From: an uncultured Bacteroidales bacterium
Lineage (GTDB): Bacteria; Bacteroidota; Bacteroidia; Bacteroidales; VadinHA17
Assembly: GCA_963725585.1 (NCBI GenBank)
Contig: CAVRYU010000009.1
Location: forward strand, 413,070 to 477,069
Length of the DNA stretch: 64,000 bases
Reading direction: 5' to 3'
In this document: positions 7,997 to 22,646 of the stretch, one piece after another
Numbering within the stretch: position 1 is the first letter of the stretch
Layout of the letters: every line of letters begins with the position of its first letter
The notes under the pieces: model-generated
The model's input: only the letters and a program-made list of their open reading frames with translations
The model's database searches: none
What the model was told of the DNA's origin: nothing
Translations under genes and position numbers: made by a program

Positions 7997-8077
7997 GCCC
8001 CCCAACCCCCCTAAAGGGGGGCCAGGAAAGCGAAATTTAGATCAAAATCCCCCGCTGATCTAGGGGGCGCAGGGGGC
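7997..8077. repeat. C/G-run nested-hairpin intergenic repeat, type 2 (copy E)
   Basis: GCCCCCC aa CCCCCC taaa GGGGGG ...(27 nt)... CCCCC gctgatcta GGGGG cgca GGGGGC. It abuts the trpB2 stop codon. Confidence 0.85.
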
Positions 8078-9438
8078 TAAGCTGGAAATTCTATTTTTGA
8101 AATAGCATGCTCGACTTCGGCATTTGTAAGCTCGTGATCGGGAAGGTTATTTTCAAAATACTTCTCATAAGCCGAAATGTCGAAATGTCCGTGTCCGCTA
8201 AGGTTAAAAAGTATCGTCCTTGAGACTCCCTCGATATCAGCCTTTCTTGCCTCATCAAGCGCACCGGCAATTGCATAGGTTGATTCGGGAGCTGGAAGAA
8301 TGCCTTCGTTTCTTGCAAAAAGGACACCTGCCTCAAAGCATTCCCTCTGCATTTTTGCCTTTGCTTCGACCAATCCGTCTTTCTTGAGCTGACTTACAAG
8401 TGTTCCGGCCCCGTGATAGCGTAAACCTCCTGCATGTATCTTCTCAGGCATAAAATTATGTCCAAGTGTGTACATGGGCAGGAGAGGGGTCATTCCGGCT
8501 GAGTCGCCAAAGTCGTACATGAATTTCCCCTTTGTAAGTTTAGGGCATGAGGATGGCTCAATTGTCAGCAGTCGCGTCTTTTTACCATTTACCAGGTTTT
8601 CGCGAAGGAAAGGAAATGCAATTCCGGAGAAATTTGATCCGCCACCGAAGCATCCTATTACAACATCAGGATAATCATCGGTTTTTGCCATTTGGAGCAC
8701 GGCTTCCTGTCCTATGATCGTCTGGTGAAGGATAACATGGTTAAGCACACTTCCGAGAGAGTATTTGGTGTAAGGGTCTTCAGCAGCTATTTCCATTGCT
8801 TCAGAAATTGCAATGCCAAGACTTCCCGGAGAATCCGGATCAATTTCAAGAACTCTCCTGCCTGAGACTGTCATAGTTGATGGCGAAGGAATTACCTTGG
8901 CATTATAGACATTCATCAGGAGCTTGCGTCCGGGTTTCTGACCATAGCTGACCTTTACCATAAAGACCAGAAGTTCAAGTCCGAAATGCGCACAGGCGTA
9001 ACTCATTGCGCATCCCCATTGGCCGGCTCCGGTTTCAGTTGTGATCCTTCTTACTCCTTCCTGCTTATTATAGTAAGCCTGTGCAATCGCTGTGTTGGCT
9101 TTATGAGAACCTGAATAATTGCCCCCTTCATATTTAAAATAGATTTTGCTTTTTGTACCCAGGGTTTTTTCAAGATTGACTGCCCTGAACAAAGGTGATG
9201 GACGATAAGTTTTATAGAGGTCAAGTACTTCATCAGGTATTTCAATATACCTTTCAGCTGATACCTCCTGTTTAATCAGCTCCATCGGGAATACGGCAGC
9301 CAGAGCCTCGGGTCCTATTGGCTGACGTGTTGCCGGGTTCAGCGGTGGAAGGGGCTTATTGGGCATATCCGCCATAACATTATACCAGTGGGTTGGCATT
9401 TCTTTTTCGCTCAGTAAAATTTTTGTAATCTTTTTCAT
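8077..9438 (-). CDS. trpB: TrpB2-type tryptophan synthase beta-like PLP enzyme
   Basis: 453 aa. The long TrpB2 N-terminus is present (PTHWYNVMADMPNKPLPPLNP...) along with the PLP-lysine region GGNYSGSHKANTA. No trpA or other trp gene is adjacent. Confidence 0.85.
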   Translation of the reverse strand: MKKITKILLSEKEMPTHWYNVMADMPNKPLPPLNPATRQPIGPEALAAVFPMELIKQEVSAERYIEIPDEVLDLYKTYRPSPLFRAVNLEKTLGTKSKIYFKYEGGNYSGSHKANTAIAQAYYNKQEGVRRITTETGAGQWGCAMSYACAHFGLELLVFMVKVSYGQKPGRKLLMNVYNAKVIPSPSTMTVSGRRVLEIDPDSPGSLGIAISEAMEIAAEDPYTKYSLGSVLNHVILHQTIIGQEAVLQMAKTDDYPDVVIGCFGGGSNFSGIAFPFLRENLVNGKKTRLLTIEPSSCPKLTKGKFMYDFGDSAGMTPLLPMYTLGHNFMPEKIHAGGLRYHGAGTLVSQLKKDGLVEAKAKMQRECFEAGVLFARNEGILPAPESTYAIAGALDEARKADIEGVSRTILFNLSGHGHFDISAYEKYFENNLPDHELTNAEVEHAISKIEFPA

Positions 9439-9471: not shown

Positions 9472-9505
9472 AATAAAAAAGGCATGCTGTGAACAGCATG
9501 CCTTT
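9472..9505 (-). terminator. Intrinsic terminator of the Trp attenuator, about 33 nt upstream of the trpB2 start
   Basis: The minus strand reads aaaGGCATGCTGttcaCAGCATGCCttttttattt: a 9-bp perfect stem plus a U-tract. Confidence 0.8.
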
Positions 9506-9549
9506 ATGGGTAAATATCTTGTAGATTATATAACGGCCTTATTCACAGC

Positions 9550-9600
9550 TTAAATTTTCGAGCTGCGCCAGGACCAGATATATAATGTTCCAAATTTCAT
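9550..9600 (-). CDS. Trp leader peptide MKFGTLYIWSWRSSKI
   Basis: 16-codon ORF with two Trp codons (W-S-W). Its stop is followed directly by gctgtgaa, which is complementary to ttcacagc in the terminator loop and 3' arm (candidate antiterminator). Confidence 0.7.
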   Translation of the reverse strand: MKFGTLYIWSWRSSKI

Positions 9601-9716
9601 GGCATCAAAAATAAGTAAAAATTTCAATTTGCAAGAAAAAAGCAGAAAATATTTAATTTCTTAAATATTATCGTTGGTTTTAGTGTTAATCTGTTAAAAT
9701 TGATATTATCTTTTTA

Positions 9717-9784
9717 CCCCCTTCCCAACCCTTCCCCCATGGGGGAAGGAGACTTTTCCCCCCTGGGGGAAATAAGAAAGGGGG
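9717..9784. repeat. C/G-run nested-hairpin intergenic repeat, type 1 (copy B)
   Basis: CCCCC-ttcccaac-CCTTCCCCC at GGGGGAAGG-agac-TTTTCCCCC ct GGGGGAAA-taagaaa-GGGGG. It is near-identical in design to copy A and lies just downstream of aroA. Confidence 0.85.
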
Positions 9785-9804
9785 TGTCTCACCTATTCAG
9801 ATGT

Positions 9805-11056
9805 TTATTCATGTACAACAGCTCCAACCTTCCTCAGGTCGTCAAAAAATCCCGGGTATGACTTAACAATACAATGTGAATCCTTGATGAATACAGTGTC
9901 TGATGCACCCAATGCTGCAACAGCTTCAGCCATCGCAATACGGTGGTCATCATGAGAATTTACTCTTGCTCCTTTTACCTTTCCTCCGGTAACGATCAGA
10001 TAATCATCACTCATTTCGACCTTTATATTCATTTTACCAAACTCTTCCGTAAGTGCAGATGCCCGGTCACTTTCTTTATGCCTGAGCCGTGAGGCACCTT
10101 TTAGTTTTGTAACACCTTTGCAGTAAGATGCAAGAGCAACGAGAGGAGGGAAGAGATCGGGCGATTCGGTGGCATCGAATTCAAAAGCTTTAAGATCAGA
10201 TTTTGATACCTCAATATTACTTTCAGTTATCTTCATATTTGCACCGGCTTTCTCAAGAGCTTTAAGTATTCCCATATCGCTCTGAAAGCTGTCTGTCCGC
10301 AAGCCGCTGACATTTATATCTCCGTTTATTGCACCCGCAACAAGAAGGAATGATCCGCCGCTCCAGTCACTTTCAATCCCGTAAGTCACCGGATTGTATT
10401 TCTGCTGCCCGGGTACCCTGAAAAGTTCATAATTCTCATTGGTTATCATAATGCCAAAATCCCTGAGGACTCCAAGTGTCATGTCAATATAGGGTTTGCT
10501 CTTCAGGTTGTTGACTTTTATAATCGATTTGTCATCAGCAAGCGGCAGTGCCATAAGCAAACCAGAAAGGAGCTGAGAGCTGACCGAACCATCAATTTCG
10601 CAATGGCCTCCCTTAAGGGGTCCTCTTATTGTAAGCGGGAGAAATCCGTCAGTAGCTGAACATTTTACTCCAAGCTGATTTAAAGCATCAGCGATCATAT
10701 TCATAGGTCTCTTTTTCAGCGAACCTGCACCTGTCATTGTTATTTCTTCATCAAAAAGTGCTGCTATTGGGGAAAACAGACGTATTGCCAGTCCCGATTC
10801 GCCGCAGTTCAGCTTCTTTTCTTTCAGCTCACCGACAGCCTGTGATCTTCATTTTATCAGGCTGAGGTTCGACCCTTGCACCCAGACTTACTGCAATGCT
10901 CATTGCAGCCAGTGAATCGTCGCAATACGATGGATTCACTAAAAGGCTCTGCCCGTCTGCAAGAATTGCAGCAGCGATCGCCCGTTGAGTCATACTTTTT
11001 GATGGTGGTGCTTTTATCTCACCCCTTACAGACGAAGGCTCTACAGATCTTTCCAT
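9805..11056 (-). pseudogene. aroA: 3-phosphoshikimate 1-carboxyvinyltransferase (EPSP synthase), one frameshift as assembled
   Basis: The N-terminal frame reads MERSVEPSSVRGEIKAPPSKSMTQRA...KMKITGCR*. The C-terminal frame, opened upstream, reads ..VGELKEKKLNCGESGLAIRLFSPIAAL..TGAGSLKKRPM... The frames join with one extra base near 10831-10848. The 11095 start in the track is a TTG extension. Confidence 0.85.
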
Positions 11057-11069
11057 AAAATCAGGTTTC

Positions 11070-12185
11070 TTATTTTTTCCCGCCGGTATTTTCAACGCCG
11101 CTGTTCATGATCCTCATCTGATGATTAATTGACTCCTGGTGTATTGCTTTAAAGATGGTATCTATCATCTCCCTGCTCAGTCCTTTTACCTGACCGTTTA
11201 TCATCACCTTTTTAATTATTTCATCCCAGCGTGTTGTCTGCAAGATAGTAATATTATTTTCCTTTTTATACTGGCCGATAGTTTCTGCAACTTTCATCCT
11301 TTTTTCAAGTATATCCAGAAGTGTGTCATCAAAAACATCTATCTGCTGCCTTAACTCGCCGAGGATATCGAGCAGTCTTGGATCAGATGCCACGGGGCTC
11401 CTGAGAACGAGCCTGCTCAGCAGTTCCCTGAGTTCATTGGGGGTGACCTGTTGGGCTGAATCGCTCAGGGCCTTATCGGGATCGATATGCGATTCAAGCA
11501 TAAGTCCGTCAAAGTTAAGGTCCATTGCCTTCTGTGAGATCTCGAAAAGATATTCCCTTGCCCCCGAAATATGACTGGGGTCACAGATTATCGGCAGGTC
11601 AGGTATACGACGGCGGAGCTCTATCGGCAATTGCCAGTTGGGTTGATTCCTGTATATTGTTTTCTCATAAGTTGAGAATCCCCGGTGAATAGCTCCCAGC
11701 CTTGTTATCCCTGCTTTGGCAATTCGCTCGATTGCCCCTATCCACAGCTCAAGATCGGGATTGATCGGATTTTTTACCAGGACCATCACATCAACACCTT
11801 TTAAGGCATCTGATATCTCCTGCACTGTGAAAGGATTAACAGATGTCCTTGCCCCAATCCACAGCATGTCGATGCCGTATTTCAGTGCCTCGTAAACATG
11901 TTTCTCATTGGCGACCTCAGTTCCAACCATGAGACCGGTTTCCTGCTTAACCGTTCTCAGCCATTTCAGACCATCAATTCCTACTCCTTCAAATGAATTT
12001 GGACGAGTTCTGGGCTTCCAGATACCGGCACGAAAAACGCTTACTTCTTTTATCTGAGCCAGCTCGGTTGCCGTAGCCATTACCTGTTCCTCAGTCTCAG
12101 CACTGCATGGGCCGGAAATAAGAAATGGCCTTGACTTATAGCCTCTCCACTCATTTGCCAGATATGTTTTCAATTCAAGTACCAT
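11070..12185 (-). CDS. Bifunctional 3-deoxy-7-phosphoheptulonate (DAHP) synthase / chorismate mutase (AroQ domain at C-terminus)
   Basis: 371 aa. The N-terminal part is a type I-beta DAHP synthase (FLISGPCSAETEEQV...). The C-terminal ~90 aa are chorismate-mutase-like (LRQQIDVFDDTLLDILEKRMKVAETIGQYK). Confidence 0.85.
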   Translation of the reverse strand: MVLELKTYLANEWRGYKSRPFLISGPCSAETEEQVMATATELAQIKEVSVFRAGIWKPRTRPNSFEGVGIDGLKWLRTVKQETGLMVGTEVANEKHVYEALKYGIDMLWIGARTSVNPFTVQEISDALKGVDVMVLVKNPINPDLELWIGAIERIAKAGITRLGAIHRGFSTYEKTIYRNQPNWQLPIELRRRIPDLPIICDPSHISGAREYLFEISQKAMDLNFDGLMLESHIDPDKALSDSAQQVTPNELRELLSRLVLRSPVASDPRLLDILGELRQQIDVFDDTLLDILEKRMKVAETIGQYKKENNITILQTTRWDEIIKKVMINGQVKGLSREMIDTIFKAIHQESINHQMRIMNSGVENTGGKK

Positions 12186-12198
12186 ATCATTTCATATT

Positions 12199-13044
12199 TT
12201 AATTTAAGATCTTCCTTATTTTGTTAGCCTCTTCCATCAGAGCTTTAAGGCCATCCTTATCCTTTTCTGAAATCATTTTTCTGAAAAGGTTCATCTTTTC
12301 AATGTAAGTGTCCATTACCTCAATAATAAACTCTGAATTTTCAAGAAAAATAGGAGCCCATGTATCTCCGTTACTCTTTGCAAGTCGTACCGTACTTTCA
12401 AAGCCTCCTCCGGCAAGCGTCATTATATTCTGTTCTTCACGCTCTTTGTCAAGAACGCTCAGAGCCAGCGAAAAAGATGTAATATGTGAAATATGTGATA
12501 CATAAGCAACATGAACATCATGATCGCTTGAATTCATATAGACTTTTCTCATATTCAGTATATCGAGCATTTTCTCAATCACACCAAGGGCATCCTTATC
12601 GCTGAGTTCCCGATCGCAGATTATTGCATTCTTATAATCGAAAAGTCTGCCAATCGCAGCAAGCGGACCTGAAAACTCGGTACCTGCCATTGGATGTAGC
12701 GCAACATAGCGTCCCCTGGCAGGATGATTCTTTGATATTTTTGCAATTTTCTCCTTCGTGGAGCCCATATCGGTCACTACTTTAGACGTTCCGGCTATCT
12801 GATCAAGTATTCCGGGAAGCATTTTACAATTTGTATCAACAGGTGTGCTGAGAATTATAAGGTCACTTCTGTCCACTGCATTTTCAAGTGAATCCGTTTC
12901 ATCAACCAATCCGCAAAGCTGTGCAATATTCCTGTGCTGAAGATTTGAATCGACACCTATTATTCTATCAGCGAATCCCCGTTTACGAAGGTCAATCATT
13001 AATGAACCTCCTATAAGTCCTATGCCTACTGTTGCTACTGTCAT
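12199..13044 (-). CDS. tyrA: Prephenate (or arogenate) dehydrogenase
   Basis: 281 aa with a Rossmann N-terminus (VGIGLIGGS) and the HPMAGTEFSG motif. Confidence 0.85.
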   Translation of the reverse strand: MTVATVGIGLIGGSLMIDLRKRGFADRIIGVDSNLQHRNIAQLCGLVDETDSLENAVDRSDLIILSTPVDTNCKMLPGILDQIAGTSKVVTDMGSTKEKIAKISKNHPARGRYVALHPMAGTEFSGPLAAIGRLFDYKNAIICDRELSDKDALGVIEKMLDILNMRKVYMNSSDHDVHVAYVSHISHITSFSLALSVLDKEREEQNIMTLAGGGFESTVRLAKSNGDTWAPIFLENSEFIIEVMDTYIEKMNLFRKMISEKDKDGLKALMEEANKIRKILN

Positions 13045-13075
13045 ATCTGTGATTGGTAATTAGTTATTGGTAATT

Positions 13076-13099
13076 CCCCCTTTGAAGGAGGCAAGGGGG
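13076..13099. repeat. Short C5/G5 hairpin (minimal member of the C/G-run repeat family)
   Basis: CCCCCTTtgaaggaggcAAGGGGG, preceded by the tandem attggtaatt..attggtaatt (13051-13075). Confidence 0.5.
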
Positions 13100-13115
13100 A
13101 TGTATTAATGTCATA

Positions 13116-14279
13116 CTATAAATTCAATTCTTTTATTCTTTCTTTTGCTTCCTTCAGCCTTTCATTCGACGCGCACAAAGATATTCGAATATACCGTTCT
13201 CCCATACTTCCGAAAATGAAGCCAGGGGTTATGAATACATGAGCTTTATTAAGTATCTCCTCTACAAAATCCTCACAGCTTCCGGTTTCATCGGGTATCC
13301 TTCCCCAAACGAAAAGACCGGTCTGTTCCCTGCTGAATTTACAGGACAGTAGTTCCATTATGGATTCAGCAGTTTCACGGCGTTCCGTATAAACTTTATT
13401 TACTGTGCCATACCACGATCGGGGATTACCAAGAGCTTCAGCTGCTGCCAGCTGAAGAGGCAGGAACATTCCTGAATCCATATTGCTTTTTACTTTAAGA
13501 ATATTCCTGATATAATCGCTGTTCCCGGCCACCATCCCAATCCTCCATCCTGCCATGTTATGGGATTTGCTTAATGAATTTAGCTCAAGTGAATTTTCCA
13601 TAGCACCCTCCACTGAAAGAAGACTCAGATAATCTTTATTAAGTATGAAGCTGTAAGGATTGTCGTTGCACAAAAGGATGTTGTGATCGCGGGAAAATGA
13701 GACCAGTTTCCGGAAGAGGCTTACAGATCCTTTTGTTCCGGTTGGCATATGAGGGTAATTAATCCACATAAGCTTTACATTGGCAAGGTTCTCTTTTTCA
13801 ATGGCATCGATATCCGGTAACCAGCCGCTTTTTTCATCAAGATCATAATATCTTACCTTTCCTCCGACAAGGTTTGTCACTGAAGAGTAGGTCGGATAGC
13901 CCGGATTTGGAACAAGCACTTCATCTCCGGGATTTACGAAAGCCATACTGATATGCATGATTCCCTCCTTGCTACCCATCAGTGGAAGTATTTCAGACCC
14001 AGGATCAAGCTTTACCTTGAAATACTCAAGATACCAGTCAGAGAAAGCTTTCCTTAATACAGGGCTTCCGTTATAGCTGGGATATCCATGAACATTTGGC
14101 TTGCCTGATTCCTCAGCAAGGCGCCTTATCGTATTTTCCGATGGAGGCTGGTCGGGACTTCCTATTCCAAGATTAATAATGTCAGCTCCTGCATTGCGCA
14201 TCTCTTCTATCTGCCTGAGCTTACGGGAAAAATAGTACTCCTGGACACTATTTGTACGATCAGCAGGTTTAACTTTCAT
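13116..14279 (-). CDS. Class I/II PLP aminotransferase (aromatic/prephenate aminotransferase candidate)
   Basis: About 387 aa from the ATG at 14279 (MKVKPADR...). Fold-type-I motifs are present (NPGYPTY, NYPHMPTG, SLSKSHNMAGWRIG). The 14309 start in the track is a TTG extension. Confidence 0.8.
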   Translation of the reverse strand: MKVKPADRTNSVQEYYFSRKLRQIEEMRNAGADIINLGIGSPDQPPSENTIRRLAEESGKPNVHGYPSYNGSPVLRKAFSDWYLEYFKVKLDPGSEILPLMGSKEGIMHISMAFVNPGDEVLVPNPGYPTYSSVTNLVGGKVRYYDLDEKSGWLPDIDAIEKENLANVKLMWINYPHMPTGTKGSVSLFRKLVSFSRDHNILLCNDNPYSFILNKDYLSLLSVEGAMENSLELNSLSKSHNMAGWRIGMVAGNSDYIRNILKVKSNMDSGMFLPLQLAAAEALGNPRSWYGTVNKVYTERRETAESIMELLSCKFSREQTGLFVWGRIPDETGSCEDFVEEILNKAHVFITPGFIFGSMGERYIRISLCASNERLKEAKERIKELNL

Positions 14280-15099
14280 AAAGTATGTCTCCTTTATTGT
14301 AAACACCAAGTACCTCTAAATTGCTTGTATATTCTTTTAGAATGGATTCAATAATCTTCATATCGGAATTGTCAGGCAGTTCAAGGTCGAGGTAGAACAT
14401 GTATTCCCAATCACCGTTCAACCTGGGTACTGACTGAATCTTGGAGAGATTGATGTTCATTTCAGCAAGCTTCACAAGAACGGCAGCGAGTGATCCTGGT
14501 TTGTGTCCTGTAGCAAAACAGATTGAGACTTTATTCCCTGTCTTATTTCCTTTTTCCTCACTGCCAATCACAAGGAACCTGGTGTAATTTTTCTTGTATG
14601 TCTCAATCCCTCCTGCGATGATTTCAAGACCATATATTTCAGCTGCATTGGAAGAAGCTATAGCTGCAATTTTTTTCAGCTTGTGTTCCGATATCAGTTT
14701 TGCGCTTCCGGCAGTATCGTCCGATTCGACAAGTGTTATTTCAGGGTACTGGTTCAGGAAAGTCATACACTGTTCCAGTGCAATCGGATGTGACCTGATC
14801 TGTTTTATCTCGTGAATAGTTTGACCGGGAAGAGCCATCAGGTTCTGCTTAACCCTGAGATTATGTTCCCCCAGCATTTTTAGTCCCGATTCCCTTATAA
14901 GACTGTAATTGTAAAGGATACTTCCCGACCGCGCATTTTCGATGGCCATCATTGCCAGATCGGCTTTCCCTTCCATGACGGAGTTCAGAGTCTGGTCAAA
15001 AGTCGCGCAGGGGACTATTTCTATATCTTTATTACTAAAAAACTGCCTGGCTGCAACTTCGTGAAAACATCCTTTTTCTCCCTGTACCGAAATTTTCAT
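14269..15099 (-). CDS. pheA: Prephenate dehydratase with C-terminal ACT domain
   Basis: 276 aa. The PDT domain starts ISVQGEKGCFHEVAA. An ACT-like tail follows (KPGSLAAVLVKLAEMNINLSKIQS). Confidence 0.85.
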   Translation of the reverse strand: MKISVQGEKGCFHEVAARQFFSNKDIEIVPCATFDQTLNSVMEGKADLAMMAIENARSGSILYNYSLIRESGLKMLGEHNLRVKQNLMALPGQTIHEIKQIRSHPIALEQCMTFLNQYPEITLVESDDTAGSAKLISEHKLKKIAAIASSNAAEIYGLEIIAGGIETYKKNYTRFLVIGSEEKGNKTGNKVSICFATGHKPGSLAAVLVKLAEMNINLSKIQSVPRLNGDWEYMFYLDLELPDNSDMKIIESILKEYTSNLEVLGVYNKGDILYES

Positions 15100-15113: not shown

Positions 15114-15145
15114 AAAAAAAGAAGGGTCCCTTTTTGGGGACCCTT
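15114..15145 (-). terminator. Intrinsic terminator of the Phe attenuator, 14 nt upstream of the pheA start
   Basis: The minus strand reads AAGGGTCCCcaaaaaGGGACCCTTcttttttt. Confidence 0.8.
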
Positions 15146-15183
15146 GCTTATATATGATTTCTTATCAGTATACAAAAATCCCC

Positions 15184-15249
15184 TTATTTCTTTTTGCAGT
15201 AAAAAAAGAAGAAGAAAAAAGAGAAAAAACTGTTGTATACAATATTCAT
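15184..15249 (-). CDS. Phe/Tyr leader peptide MNIVYNSFFSFFFFFFYCKKK
   Basis: 21-codon ORF with 8 Phe and 2 Tyr codons. It lies between a TAnnTTTG box and the terminator. Confidence 0.8.
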   Translation of the reverse strand: MNIVYNSFFSFFFFFFYCKKK

Positions 15250-15269
15250 TGATTAGGGTTATTGGCTTA

Positions 15270-15277
15270 CAAAAGTA
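15270..15277 (-). promoter_or_regulatory. Bacteroidota -7 promoter box (TACTTTTG) for the aromatic operon leader
   Basis: Matches the TAnnTTTG consensus, 20 nt upstream of the leader ATG. Confidence 0.55.
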
Positions 15278-15536
15278 ATTTATTTTTCATAAAACAAATA
15301 AAAAATTAATAAAATATTGAAAAACACTATTTTTTTTAACCCCAAAGCATGTAGAGATACTTTGCTCCGCTAGCGCGGATTTGTAATCCGTGCTGGTCGG
15401 TTCTGATCAATGTAGTTTTTGGCACCGATTGCAAATCGGCGCCAGCATTTCAAACAAGCAGCTTCGAGGGTTTCGGTTTTATTTGTGACGGTTCAAAAGG
15501 ACTTCTTCAACTTCAGAGAATGATACATTTTTTGTT

Positions 15537-16071
15537 TTAAGACAGAATCATCAGATGGTACAGCAGATCAGCAGCTTCGTTTTTGAACAGTTCCGGATTA
15601 TCATCTTTTGCTTCAATAATCAGTTCGACAGCCTCTTCACCGACTTTCTGGGTGATTTTGTTTAACCCTTTGAGGAACAGCTTGTTCGTATATGATTCCC
15701 TGATATTATTATCTATTCTTTGACTTATGATTTGTTCCAGCTCAAATATGAAACCTTTTGGTGTTTCTTCCCCGAAGCATGATTTTCTTCCAGTATGGCA
15801 AACCGGTCCTGCCGGATTTACTTTAATCAGCAGAGCAGTCATTATCACAATCTGTTGTTATTTCTTTAACAATAAGGAAATTACCTGAAGTTTCACCTTT
15901 TGTCCAGAGCCGGTTTTTGCTCCGGCTGAAAAATGTGACTTTCCCTTCCTCCTGAGTTTTTTTGAATGCTTCTTCATTCATATACCCGACCATAAGAACC
16001 TGAAGGGAATTATTGTCCTGAATTACAACCGGAACAAGACCATTACCTTTGTTAAAATCAATATTATTCAT
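15537..16071 (-). pseudogene. hisI: Bifunctional phosphoribosyl-AMP cyclohydrolase / phosphoribosyl-ATP pyrophosphatase, one frameshift as assembled
   Basis: The HisI part reads (..[30 protein letters not shown]) and then CSAD*. The next frame continues [22 protein letters not shown] plus the HisE part. The frames join near 15838-15850. Confidence 0.85.
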
Positions 16072-21605: not shown

Positions 21606-22462
21606 TACAATATCATTTTCTCGATAGGTATTACAAGTATTCCTTCAGCTCCTGCATTTTTAAGCTGGTTGATCCTGTCCCAGAATTCGTCCTCCTTAAC
21701 TACAGAGTGTATACTGCACCAGCCTTTTTCCTCGAGCGGCAGGATTGTAGGACTTTTTACACCGGGAAGGATTTTACAGATATCGTGCAACGCTTCAAGC
21801 GGAGCATTAAGAAGTATGTATTTATTTTCCTTTGCGTTTTTTACAGCTCTGATCCTGAAGAGAAGCTTATCCAGAATACTCTGTTTCTTTGAATCAAGGT
21901 TTTTATTAGAGATAATAACTGCCTGACTTTTCAGAATGGTGCTGACTTCACATAATCCATTGGTCATCAAAGTACTGCCGGAGCTGACAATATCGCACAC
22001 AGCATCTGCCAGACCGATCCCGGGTGCTATTTCAACGCTTCCGCTGATCTCTTCTATTTCAGCATTGATATTGTTTTCTTTAAGATATTCAGTAAGAAGC
22101 CTGGGATAACTGGTTGCAATTTTTTTGTTCATAAAATATTCAGGACCAGTGAAGGTTGATTCTTTGGGAATTGCAAGGCTCAAACGGCAATGTGCGAAAC
22201 CCAGTTGTTCAAGTATTGATACATCCTTATTTTTTTCGAGAACCATGTTCTCACCAAGAATCCCTATATCGGCAACCTGTTGTTCGACATACTGGGGGAT
22301 ATCATCATCCCGTAAGAACAGAATTTCGACAGGGAAATTTACAGCGTTAGTCTTAAGGACGTCAGTGCCATTAGAAAATTTTATCCCGCACTCTTCCAAT
22401 AGTTTATGGGAGTTCTCGCTTAACCGGCCTTTTTTCTGGATCGCAATTTTAAGTTTGCTCAT
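21605..22462 (-). CDS. hisG: ATP phosphoribosyltransferase (long form)
   Basis: 285 aa (MSKLKIAIQKKGRLSE...). It is the first gene of the his operon. Its TAA overlaps the hisD ATG (TAATG). Confidence 0.9.
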   Translation of the reverse strand: MSKLKIAIQKKGRLSENSHKLLEECGIKFSNGTDVLKTNAVNFPVEILFLRDDDIPQYVEQQVADIGILGENMVLEKNKDVSILEQLGFAHCRLSLAIPKESTFTGPEYFMNKKIATSYPRLLTEYLKENNINAEIEEISGSVEIAPGIGLADAVCDIVSSGSTLMTNGLCEVSTILKSQAVIISNKNLDSKKQSILDKLLFRIRAVKNAKENKYILLNAPLEALHDICKILPGVKSPTILPLEEKGWCSIHSVVKEDEFWDRINQLKNAGAEGILVIPIEKMIL

Positions 22463-22500: not shown

Positions 22501-22530
22501 AAAAAACCCGTCAGATCTGCTCAGACGGGT
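22501..22530 (-). terminator. Intrinsic terminator of the His attenuator, about 38 nt upstream of hisG
   Basis: The minus strand reads ACCCGTCTGAgcagaTCAGACGGGTtttttt: a 10-bp perfect stem plus a U-tract. Confidence 0.85.
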
Positions 22531-22561
22531 TATGATATTTTGATACAACTACATATCACTT

Positions 22562-22618
22562 TCATTTCGCCTGAGAGCAAGGATGAAAATGGTGATGATG
22601 TAATTGAAATTGATACAT
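22562..22618 (-). CDS. His leader peptide MYQFQLHHHHFHPCSQAK
   Basis: 18-codon ORF with 5 His codons (HHHHFH). It lies between a TAnnTTTG box and the terminator. Confidence 0.85.
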   Translation of the reverse strand: MYQFQLHHHHFHPCSQAK

Positions 22619-22638
22619 ATATATTATGATTCTAAATG

Positions 22639-22646
22639 CAAAGATA
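22639..22646 (-). promoter_or_regulatory. Bacteroidota -7 promoter box (TATCTTTG) for the his leader
   Basis: Matches TAnnTTTG, 20 nt upstream of the leader ATG. Confidence 0.55.

Follow-up and report, generated by a model that had tools for sequence, protein, structure and literature searches.

What governs transcription of the genes for phenylalanine and tyrosine synthesis in an uncultured member of the Bacteroidales? In a 64-kb stretch of contig CAVRYU010000009.1 (assembly GCA_963725585.1), which as a whole is called the window below, a pheA operon is preceded by a 21-codon open reading frame (ORF) rich in Phe codons and by a hairpin with a run of T. A preliminary description of the sequence proposed that the two form a leader-peptide attenuator. 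The element is very probably a classic attenuator of transcription with four segments, ribosome-mediated by way of a leader peptide and responding to scarce charged Phe- or Tyr-tRNA. The earlier reading thus gains support, and it is strengthened by hairpins that compete for the same segments, by the conservation and covariation of these pairings and by the coding signature that the ORF carries. All leader features and the pheA operon lie on the minus strand and carry the numbering of the window. The leader features, in the order of transcription, are as follows:

15295..15298, minus strand: TTTG, possible -33 element of the promoter, with the -7 box 16 nt downstream
15270..15277, minus strand: TACTTTTG, candidate -7 promoter box of the Bacteroidota type (TAnnTTTG), read from the sequence
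15184..15249, minus strand: leader ORF MNIVYNSFFSFFFFFFYCKKK, with the ATG at 15249 and the TAA stop at 15186-15184
15233..15240, minus strand: core of segment 1, GUAUACAA, codons 4-6, whose partner is UUGUAUAC of segment 2 in the minimum-free-energy fold
15199..15228, minus strand: regulatory codon tract FFSFFFFFFY, codons 8-17, which is also the U/C-rich strand of segment 1
15168..15183, minus strand: segment 2, GGGGAUUUUUGUAUAC, 5′ arm of the antiterminator, beginning at the base that follows the stop codon
15136..15147, minus strand: segment 3, GCAAGGGUCCCC, 3′ arm of the antiterminator and at the same time 5′ arm of the terminator
15145-15122, minus strand: terminator hairpin AAGGGTCCC(C)-AAAAA-GGGACCCTT, also written AAGGGUCCCC-AAAAA-GGGACCCUU, from a terminator scan
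15122..15130, minus strand: segment 4, GGGACCCUU, 3′ arm of the terminator, from the same scan
15114..15120, minus strand: T7 run of the intrinsic terminator, read from the sequence and from the scan

The leader and its competing hairpins

The leader ATG follows the TACTTTTG box after exactly 20 nt, and the ORF devotes 8 of its 21 sense codons to Phe and 2 to Tyr. The terminator stem found by the scan has nine pairs, six of them G-C, and is followed by a C and then by T7. From the T run to the pheA ATG at 15099 there are 14 nt, AATACATACAGAAG. The preliminary description had listed the box, the 20-nt gap, the Phe-rich ORF, the terminator with its T7 and the 14 nt to pheA, and the coordinates confirm all of them. 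The box and its spacing fit a promoter of the Bacteroidota type, which would give a 5′ untranslated region (UTR) of ~13 nt. The TTTG further upstream may be the -33 element known from Bacteroides promoters. A second promoter was considered in GATTTTTG of segment 2 and rejected, as the TA of TAnnTTTG is missing there and transcripts from it would still meet the terminator.

The leader ORF is not a chance feature, because it carries the most extreme single-residue run (8/9) among the 1051 ATG-started ORFs of 8-40 codons in the window, because 2000 shuffles of the intergenic region, searched for the ORF only, yielded none with at least six Phe in nine residues, and because the fold of the 181-nt leader has a z-score of -3.0 against dinucleotide shuffles.

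The terminator has a competitor. The sequence GGGGAUUUUUGU, from the first base past the leader stop, pairs with GCAAGGGUCCCC to form an antiterminator with a small AU-rich stem-loop between the two strands. Folding energies calculated in the window are -17.8 kcal/mol for the antiterminator hairpin and -15.9 kcal/mol for the terminator hairpin, and by this calculation the two are comparable. In partial transcripts that end before segment 4 the minimum-free-energy fold is always the antiterminator, with a ribosome mask or without one. The free RNA, at full length, takes up the 1:2 and 3:4 pairings together. In the 1:2 part, GUAUACAA and the U/C-rich codon tract pair with AAAAAGAAAUAAGGGGAUUUUUGUAUAC, the partner of the codon tract being AAAAAGAAAUAAGGGG. 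The preliminary description had reported no convincing antiterminator. This statement has to be withdrawn in favor of the GGGGAUUUUUGU:GCAAGGGUCCCC hairpin, whose 5′ arm starts at the base after the leader stop, and the partial-transcript folds, the alignment of relatives and RNAalifold agree on this pairing, which disrupts the terminator.

These elements suggest the following course of events. Transcription would begin a few bases past the TACTTTTG box, with the 21-codon leader ORF ~13 nt from the 5′ end. Segment 1 would consist of GUAUACAA and the U/C-rich Phe/Tyr codon tract, and segment 2 of AAAAAGAAAUAA and GGGGAUUUUUGUAUAC. Segment 2 would have two possible partners, segment 1 and segment 3 (GCAAGGGUCCCC), and so would segment 3, which could join segment 2, as the antiterminator, or segment 4 (GGGACCCUU and the U run), as the terminator. 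With Phe-tRNA and Tyr-tRNA plentiful, the ribosome would reach the UAA, which abuts GGGG, and cover segment 2. Segments 3 and 4 would then pair and transcription would halt 14 nt ahead of pheA. In a leader without a ribosome, segments 1 and 2 would pair and the terminator would form too. When charged tRNA is scarce, the ribosome would stall in codons 8-17, covering segment 1 and remaining at least 12 nt short of GGGG. Segments 2 and 3 would then pair before segment 4 is made, and the polymerase would read through pheA, the aminotransferase gene, tyrA, the gene for a DAHP synthase fused to chorismate mutase (DAHPS/CM) and aroA.

Conservation, coding signature and covariation in relatives

A scan with PheA, taking one genome per species, provided 80 loci from uncultured Bacteroidales with PheA proteins 71-94% identical. 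Upstream DNA is available for 79 of these 80 related loci, and the comparisons were made over 80 sequences, 78 of them distinct, with 77 distinct ORFs. A protein search with PheA was also aimed at distant Bacteroidota, and among the matches listed all were at least 83% identical. The mini-ORF rich in Phe (F) and Tyr (Y) codons, the terminator and the antiterminator are present in all 79 related loci with upstream DNA, which answers, for these relatives, the question of conservation upstream of pheA that the preliminary description had raised. Past the ORF each locus has the same layout, (G)GGGAUUUUUGUAUAC, an AU-rich spacer, GCAAGGGUCCC(C), the 3′ arm and a U-rich tail. The TAnnTTTG box precedes the leader ATG in 79/80 sequences and does so at a spacing of exactly 20 nt in 70/80. 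A TTTG or CTTG stands at a position comparable to that of the possible -33 element in most of the relatives printed, as judged by eye and uncounted. At one locus (L070:2350-2436) a 1-nt deletion removes the leader stop and the ORF extends by seven codons, into segment 2.

The consensus of the peptide in the relatives is MNIVY(N/K)YF(I)SF(F/Y)YF(F/Y)FYFK(K/N)R. The leaders of the family mix their codons, and the average leader has 5.8 Phe and 4.7 Tyr. A Phe-heavy leader (7-8 Phe, 2-3 Tyr) is confined to the window and its closest relatives, L001-L003, L005 and L008, and in most other relatives Phe and Tyr alternate (FYFYFYF) with about five of each. The leader had been described as a Phe-codon leader, which holds for the window (8 Phe, 2 Tyr) and its nearest relatives and fails for the family, where the rule is a Phe/Tyr mixture. 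This mixture fits an operon that holds both pheA and tyrA.

The tract evolves as codons. Throughout the family a pyrimidine occupies position 3 in 868 of 878 tract codons, and A is found 301 times at position 2, 51 times at position 1 and 9 times at position 3, which is the pattern of Phe and Tyr codons. A purine at position 3 of such codons would yield Leu or a stop. The ORF comprises 19-21 codons in 76 of the 77 distinct ORFs, so that with one exception the differences in length are whole codons, and stops interrupt the other two reading frames in 76/77 and 59/77. In 73 of the 77 distinct leaders the distance from the stop codon to segment 2 is 0-1 nt, and three sense codons for basic residues separate the last F/Y codon from the stop in 62/77. 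With this geometry a terminating ribosome would cover GGGGAUUUUU, and a ribosome stalled in the tract would leave GGGGAUUUUU free. The ORF behaves as a coding sequence, and this strong comparative signature points to translation. The preliminary description had considered that the mini-ORF might be untranslated, and the comparative data speak for the opposite in that it evolves like translated sequence.

The same data bear on the first of four other explanations. The element could be an untranslated structured RNA switch, in which a protein, an uncharged tRNA or a small ligand picks the hairpin (as with TRAP, a T-box or a riboswitch) and the F/Y ORF is incidental. The alternative hairpins alone would suffice for such a switch, the U-rich tract does pair with an A/G-rich strand, and part of the peptide conservation (MNIVY, KKR) can be explained by RNA pairing. 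However, it leaves unexplained the three-base periodicity, with its pyrimidines at position 3 and A at position 2, as well as the ATG at a fixed distance from the box, the length changes by whole codons and the stop held against segment 2. Nor does any riboswitch or T-box family match. T-box and amino-acid riboswitch families gave nothing at E up to 10 around the leader and nothing at the gathering score in the window, and Rfam gives only weak Phe_leader matches. An untranslated switch is therefore improbable.

Both hairpins fold in every sequence of the family, with mean energies of -19.4 kcal/mol for the terminator and -16.2 kcal/mol for the antiterminator. None of the 78 distinct sequences lacks the terminator stem, in which GC/GU/AU and UA/UG/CG exchanges occur, and a U-rich tail follows it in the relatives. 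Run on the whole alignment, RNAalifold returned neither the terminator nor the 1:2 helix, since the loops vary in length and MAFFT had placed the 3′ arm wrongly across them. The terminator pairs were therefore counted sequence by sequence. In two loci, L016:2296-2500 and L067:2330-2500, insertions of about 120 and 86 nt separate the terminator from pheA.

Sensing of the ribosome position could also have another output. Termination could depend on Rho, or the translation of pheA could be occluded, and the hairpin would then serve only for pausing or stability. With its end no more than 14 nt from the pheA ATG, the hairpin could affect initiation on pheA as well, and termination is here predicted from sequence features. 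Against such an output, nothing that marks an intrinsic terminator is missing from the hairpin (9 bp, 6 G-C, T7), and the relatives keep the U-rich tail. The two loci with insertions, where pheA has moved away and the element is unchanged, argue against a need for closeness. A different output thus has little probability, about as little as the untranslated switch.

The competing helices are supported by their own patterns of change. Helix 2:3 has 12 bp, with 94.9% of cells paired across the 78 sequences, as compared with 35-72% when the partner is slid. Its outermost pair covaries (GC in 32 sequences, AU in 11, GU in 10), segment 2 is nearly invariant in the 80 sequences, and RNAalifold, unguided, recovers exactly the pairs of this helix. 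In helix 1:2 (GUAUACAA:UUGUAUAC) 93.8% of cells are paired, as compared with 16-82% in slid controls. Both sides have changed in three of its eight pairs (9 cells), and none of 500 shuffles reaches its covariation score. Examples are a UA pair that becomes CG in five sequences and a GC pair that becomes AU or CG in three. These compensatory substitutions preserve the RNA pairing although they make the peptide different (Tyr5 to His, Val4 to Leu).

The covariation also speaks against reading the TGTATAC palindromes (15240-15233 and 15173-15168) as DNA operators for a dimeric repressor, with the hairpin ending a short constitutive transcript. GTATAC is a perfect palindrome, and its two copies, ~66 bp apart, are both highly conserved. 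The copies nevertheless change as reverse complements of each other, which keeps the RNA pairing and breaks each palindrome (GUACAC with GUGUAC; CUGCAC with GUGUAG). Operators would also leave the coding periodicity, the GGGGAUUUUU:AAGGGUCCCC pairing and the placement of the stop codon unexplained, and they are very unlikely. Least probable of all is a functional small hydrophobic peptide with the hairpin as its own terminator, which the well-conserved peptide sequence would favor, but F and Y swap freely at most positions of the tract, suggesting selection on the codon class and not on a peptide that folds or enters a membrane, a competing hairpin also claims the terminator's 5′ arm, and the element always stands immediately before pheA.

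Several points weigh against a leader-peptide attenuator. At equilibrium the full-length leader retains the terminator under every ribosome mask, whether placed on codons 8-17 or on the stop, so that the antiterminator in this leader must, according to the folding model, win kinetically, during transcription. A kinetic win of this kind is usual for attenuators, the textbook ones included. A ribosome at codons 14-17 still allows the GUAUACAA:UUGUAUAC helix to form behind it in silico. The core of the antiterminator is invariant and thus offers almost no covariation, its support being conservation and one covarying pair, and about ten sequences have a G, an A or another mismatch at one U:G position of helix 2:3. 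The start of transcription, translation of the ORF, stalling of the ribosome, termination and the regulatory outcome are inferred from sequence. Bacteroidota are not known to have strong initiation led by the Shine-Dalgarno sequence, nor is the phylum known to couple transcription and translation.

The putatively controlled operon and other candidate leaders in the window

The operon that the attenuator would control occupies 9805..15099 on the minus strand and was annotated with Pfam and NCBIfam, as was the first gene beyond it, for which the NCBIfam model is named:

14269-15099, minus strand: prephenate dehydratase (pheA), ATG at 15099
13116-14309, minus strand: class I/II aminotransferase
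12199-13044, minus strand: prephenate dehydrogenase (tyrA)
11070-12185, minus strand: DAHP synthase fused to chorismate mutase
10829-11095 and 9805-10737, minus strand: aroA, in two pieces by a frameshift
8077-9438, minus strand: TrpB-like gene (NF009057, 699 bits), outside the operon

The genes of the operon overlap or are separated by gaps of 13-71 nt. In 69-79 of the 80 loci pheA, aminotransferase, tyrA and DAHPS/CM follow one another in the same order and on a single strand, with hisIE upstream. The preliminary description had placed the whole aromatic branch under this control. The entry enzyme, aroA and the enzymes of the Phe and Tyr branches are indeed in the operon, and other genes of the shikimate pathway were not seen in it. 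The TrpB-like neighbor is a separate unit, 366 nt downstream of aroA.

Frameshifts of 1 nt split aroA (10737-10829) and hisIE (15823-15848), both on the minus strand, into two ORFs each. The context in hisIE suggests a surplus T in GAT AAT GAC TGCT. The two frameshifts are either assembly errors or pseudogenes, and if they are real the last gene of the operon and the his pathway are defective. Right behind aroA, at about 9715-9785 on the minus strand, lie two hairpins with C5/G5-6 arms (CCCCCAGGGGGG and CCCCCATGGGGG) and a G-rich stretch, which may be the terminator region of the operon or a repeat element. Two further hairpins that resemble each other, GGCGCCGATTTGCAATCGGTGCC and GCACGGATTACAAATCCGCGC (minus strand), lie at 15366-15450 of the window, between the end of hisIE and the Phe/Tyr promoter. 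They have no U run, gave rise to chance matches to microRNA families, and may be an end signal of the his operon or a small repeat element.

The his operon has a His leader at 22501-22646 on the minus strand. It has a TATCTTTG box at 22646-22639 and, after 20 nt, the mini-ORF MYQFQLHHHHFHPCSQAK at 22618-22562, which contains HHHHFH. A terminator, the hairpin CCCGTC..GACGGG (22529-22507, minus strand) with T6, comes next, and then the hisG ATG at 22462. The spacing from box to ATG, 20 nt, is identical in the His and the Phe/Tyr leader. A possible and weaker Trp leader lies at 9478-9613 (minus strand), upstream of the TrpB-like gene. Its mini-ORF MKFGTLYIWSWRSSKI (9600-9550) has two Trp codons and is followed by a hairpin AAAGGCAUGCUG..CAGCAUGCCUUU at 9505-9478 (minus strand) and T6. 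The start of this candidate is doubtful because its ATG comes just 5 nt after the nearest TAnnTTTG box. The Phe/Tyr and His leaders in one window suggest that ribosome-mediated attenuation is used for several amino-acid operons, and several attenuated operons would be relevant to the question of coupling between transcription and translation in Bacteroidota.

The chances are about even that the loci make up an uncatalogued family of Bacteroidales attenuators that sense Phe and Tyr at once through alternating codons, with the consensus ..SF(F/Y)YF(F/Y)FYF.. and a Phe:Tyr ratio retuned between lineages. If so, a single switch balances PheA, TyrA and the entry enzyme of the pathway. The ratio of the two codons is 8:2 in the window and its nearest relatives and near 5:5 in most other loci, and such retuning would alter which of the two amino acids has control over the shared operon. 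The alternating F/Y codons make the family a clear test case of two-amino-acid (bivalent) attenuation. Such a family would also imply working coupling of transcription and translation in a phylum where translation initiation is unlike that of model bacteria.

Comparison with known systems

The logic of the element is identical to that of the E. coli trp attenuator, and the regulatory codons and the sequence differ. In E. coli trp the ribosome at the stop codon masks segment 2, the untranslated leader forms 1:2 and 3:4 and terminates, and the 1:2 hairpin may act as a pause. The use of one leader peptide with codons for several end products of a branched pathway is a feature shared with enterobacterial leaders. 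That of ilvGMEDA has Ile, Val and Leu codons and the thr leader Thr and Ile codons, and a shortage of any of these amino acids derepresses the operon. The amino acids here are different ones, there is no sequence relation, and the codons alternate (FYFYFYF) whereas those leaders have them in blocks.

The logic is also that of a further close counterpart, pheL-pheA of E. coli, where tyrA and the DAHP synthases are controlled separately. By contrast, the operon here has tyrA, DAHPS/CM and aroA along with pheA. It belongs to another phylum, its leader mixes Phe and Tyr codons where pheL has Phe alone, its promoter fits the Bacteroidota type, and its short 5′ UTR is rich in A and shows no obvious Shine-Dalgarno sequence. 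Common to both systems are a short ORF in which Phe codons form a run, the pairings 1:2, 2:3 and 3:4, which exclude one another, and an intrinsic terminator a short distance upstream of pheA. In E. coli it is pausing of the ribosome at the Phe codons that frees segment 2, and pheL genes are listed from the gamma subdivision only (PMC3082878). The Rfam family RF01859 (Phe_leader) is the only one that weakly matches the leader of the window and those of its relatives. It scores 28.1 bits (E = 0.036) on the window, below its gathering score of 55, and 29.7-40.3 bits in six of 10 relatives, the other four giving no match. Nowhere in the window does any Rfam family attain its gathering score.

The literature on leader-peptide attenuation in Bacteroidetes yielded one annotation, in Flavobacterium psychrophilum, and a passing remark on B. 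thetaiotaomicron. Comparative genomics by Vitreschak and colleagues in 2004 is said to have predicted attenuators in Bacteroidetes/Chlorobi. In the 2021 study of F. psychrophilum, a pheA-aspC3 leader peptide element, MNTNNTFYSNNSFYFYWNIGRDCYMVI, is annotated from transcriptome data, with a mapped transcription start, read-through in some conditions and expression that is highest in minimal medium (PMC9723704). It is listed there, as a leader with no Rfam hit, in a supplementary table of structured 5′ regions (PMC9723704). It resembles the Bacteroidales element in that the phylum is the same and tandem aromatic codons (..FYSNNSFYFYW..) lie upstream of a pheA-aminotransferase operon (PMC9723704). 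The organism, however, belongs to the Flavobacteriia and not to the Bacteroidales, and its peptide has 27 codons including one for Trp. Compared by eye with MNIVY..FYFYFYFKKR it shares the F/Y-rich tract and no alignable similarity, and the annotation comes without a dissection of the pairings (PMC9723704).

The mechanism is thus an ordinary, textbook one, and this kind of element has already been seen in the phylum. Attenuation in Bacteroidota has so far been inferred only from annotation, and no Rfam family covers the element. What is added here is the full four-segment anatomy, its covariation and a Bacteroidales family of 80 sequences, the 80 loci being species representatives. From the alignment a new RNA family could be built, and operons in metagenome-assembled genomes could be annotated better with its help.

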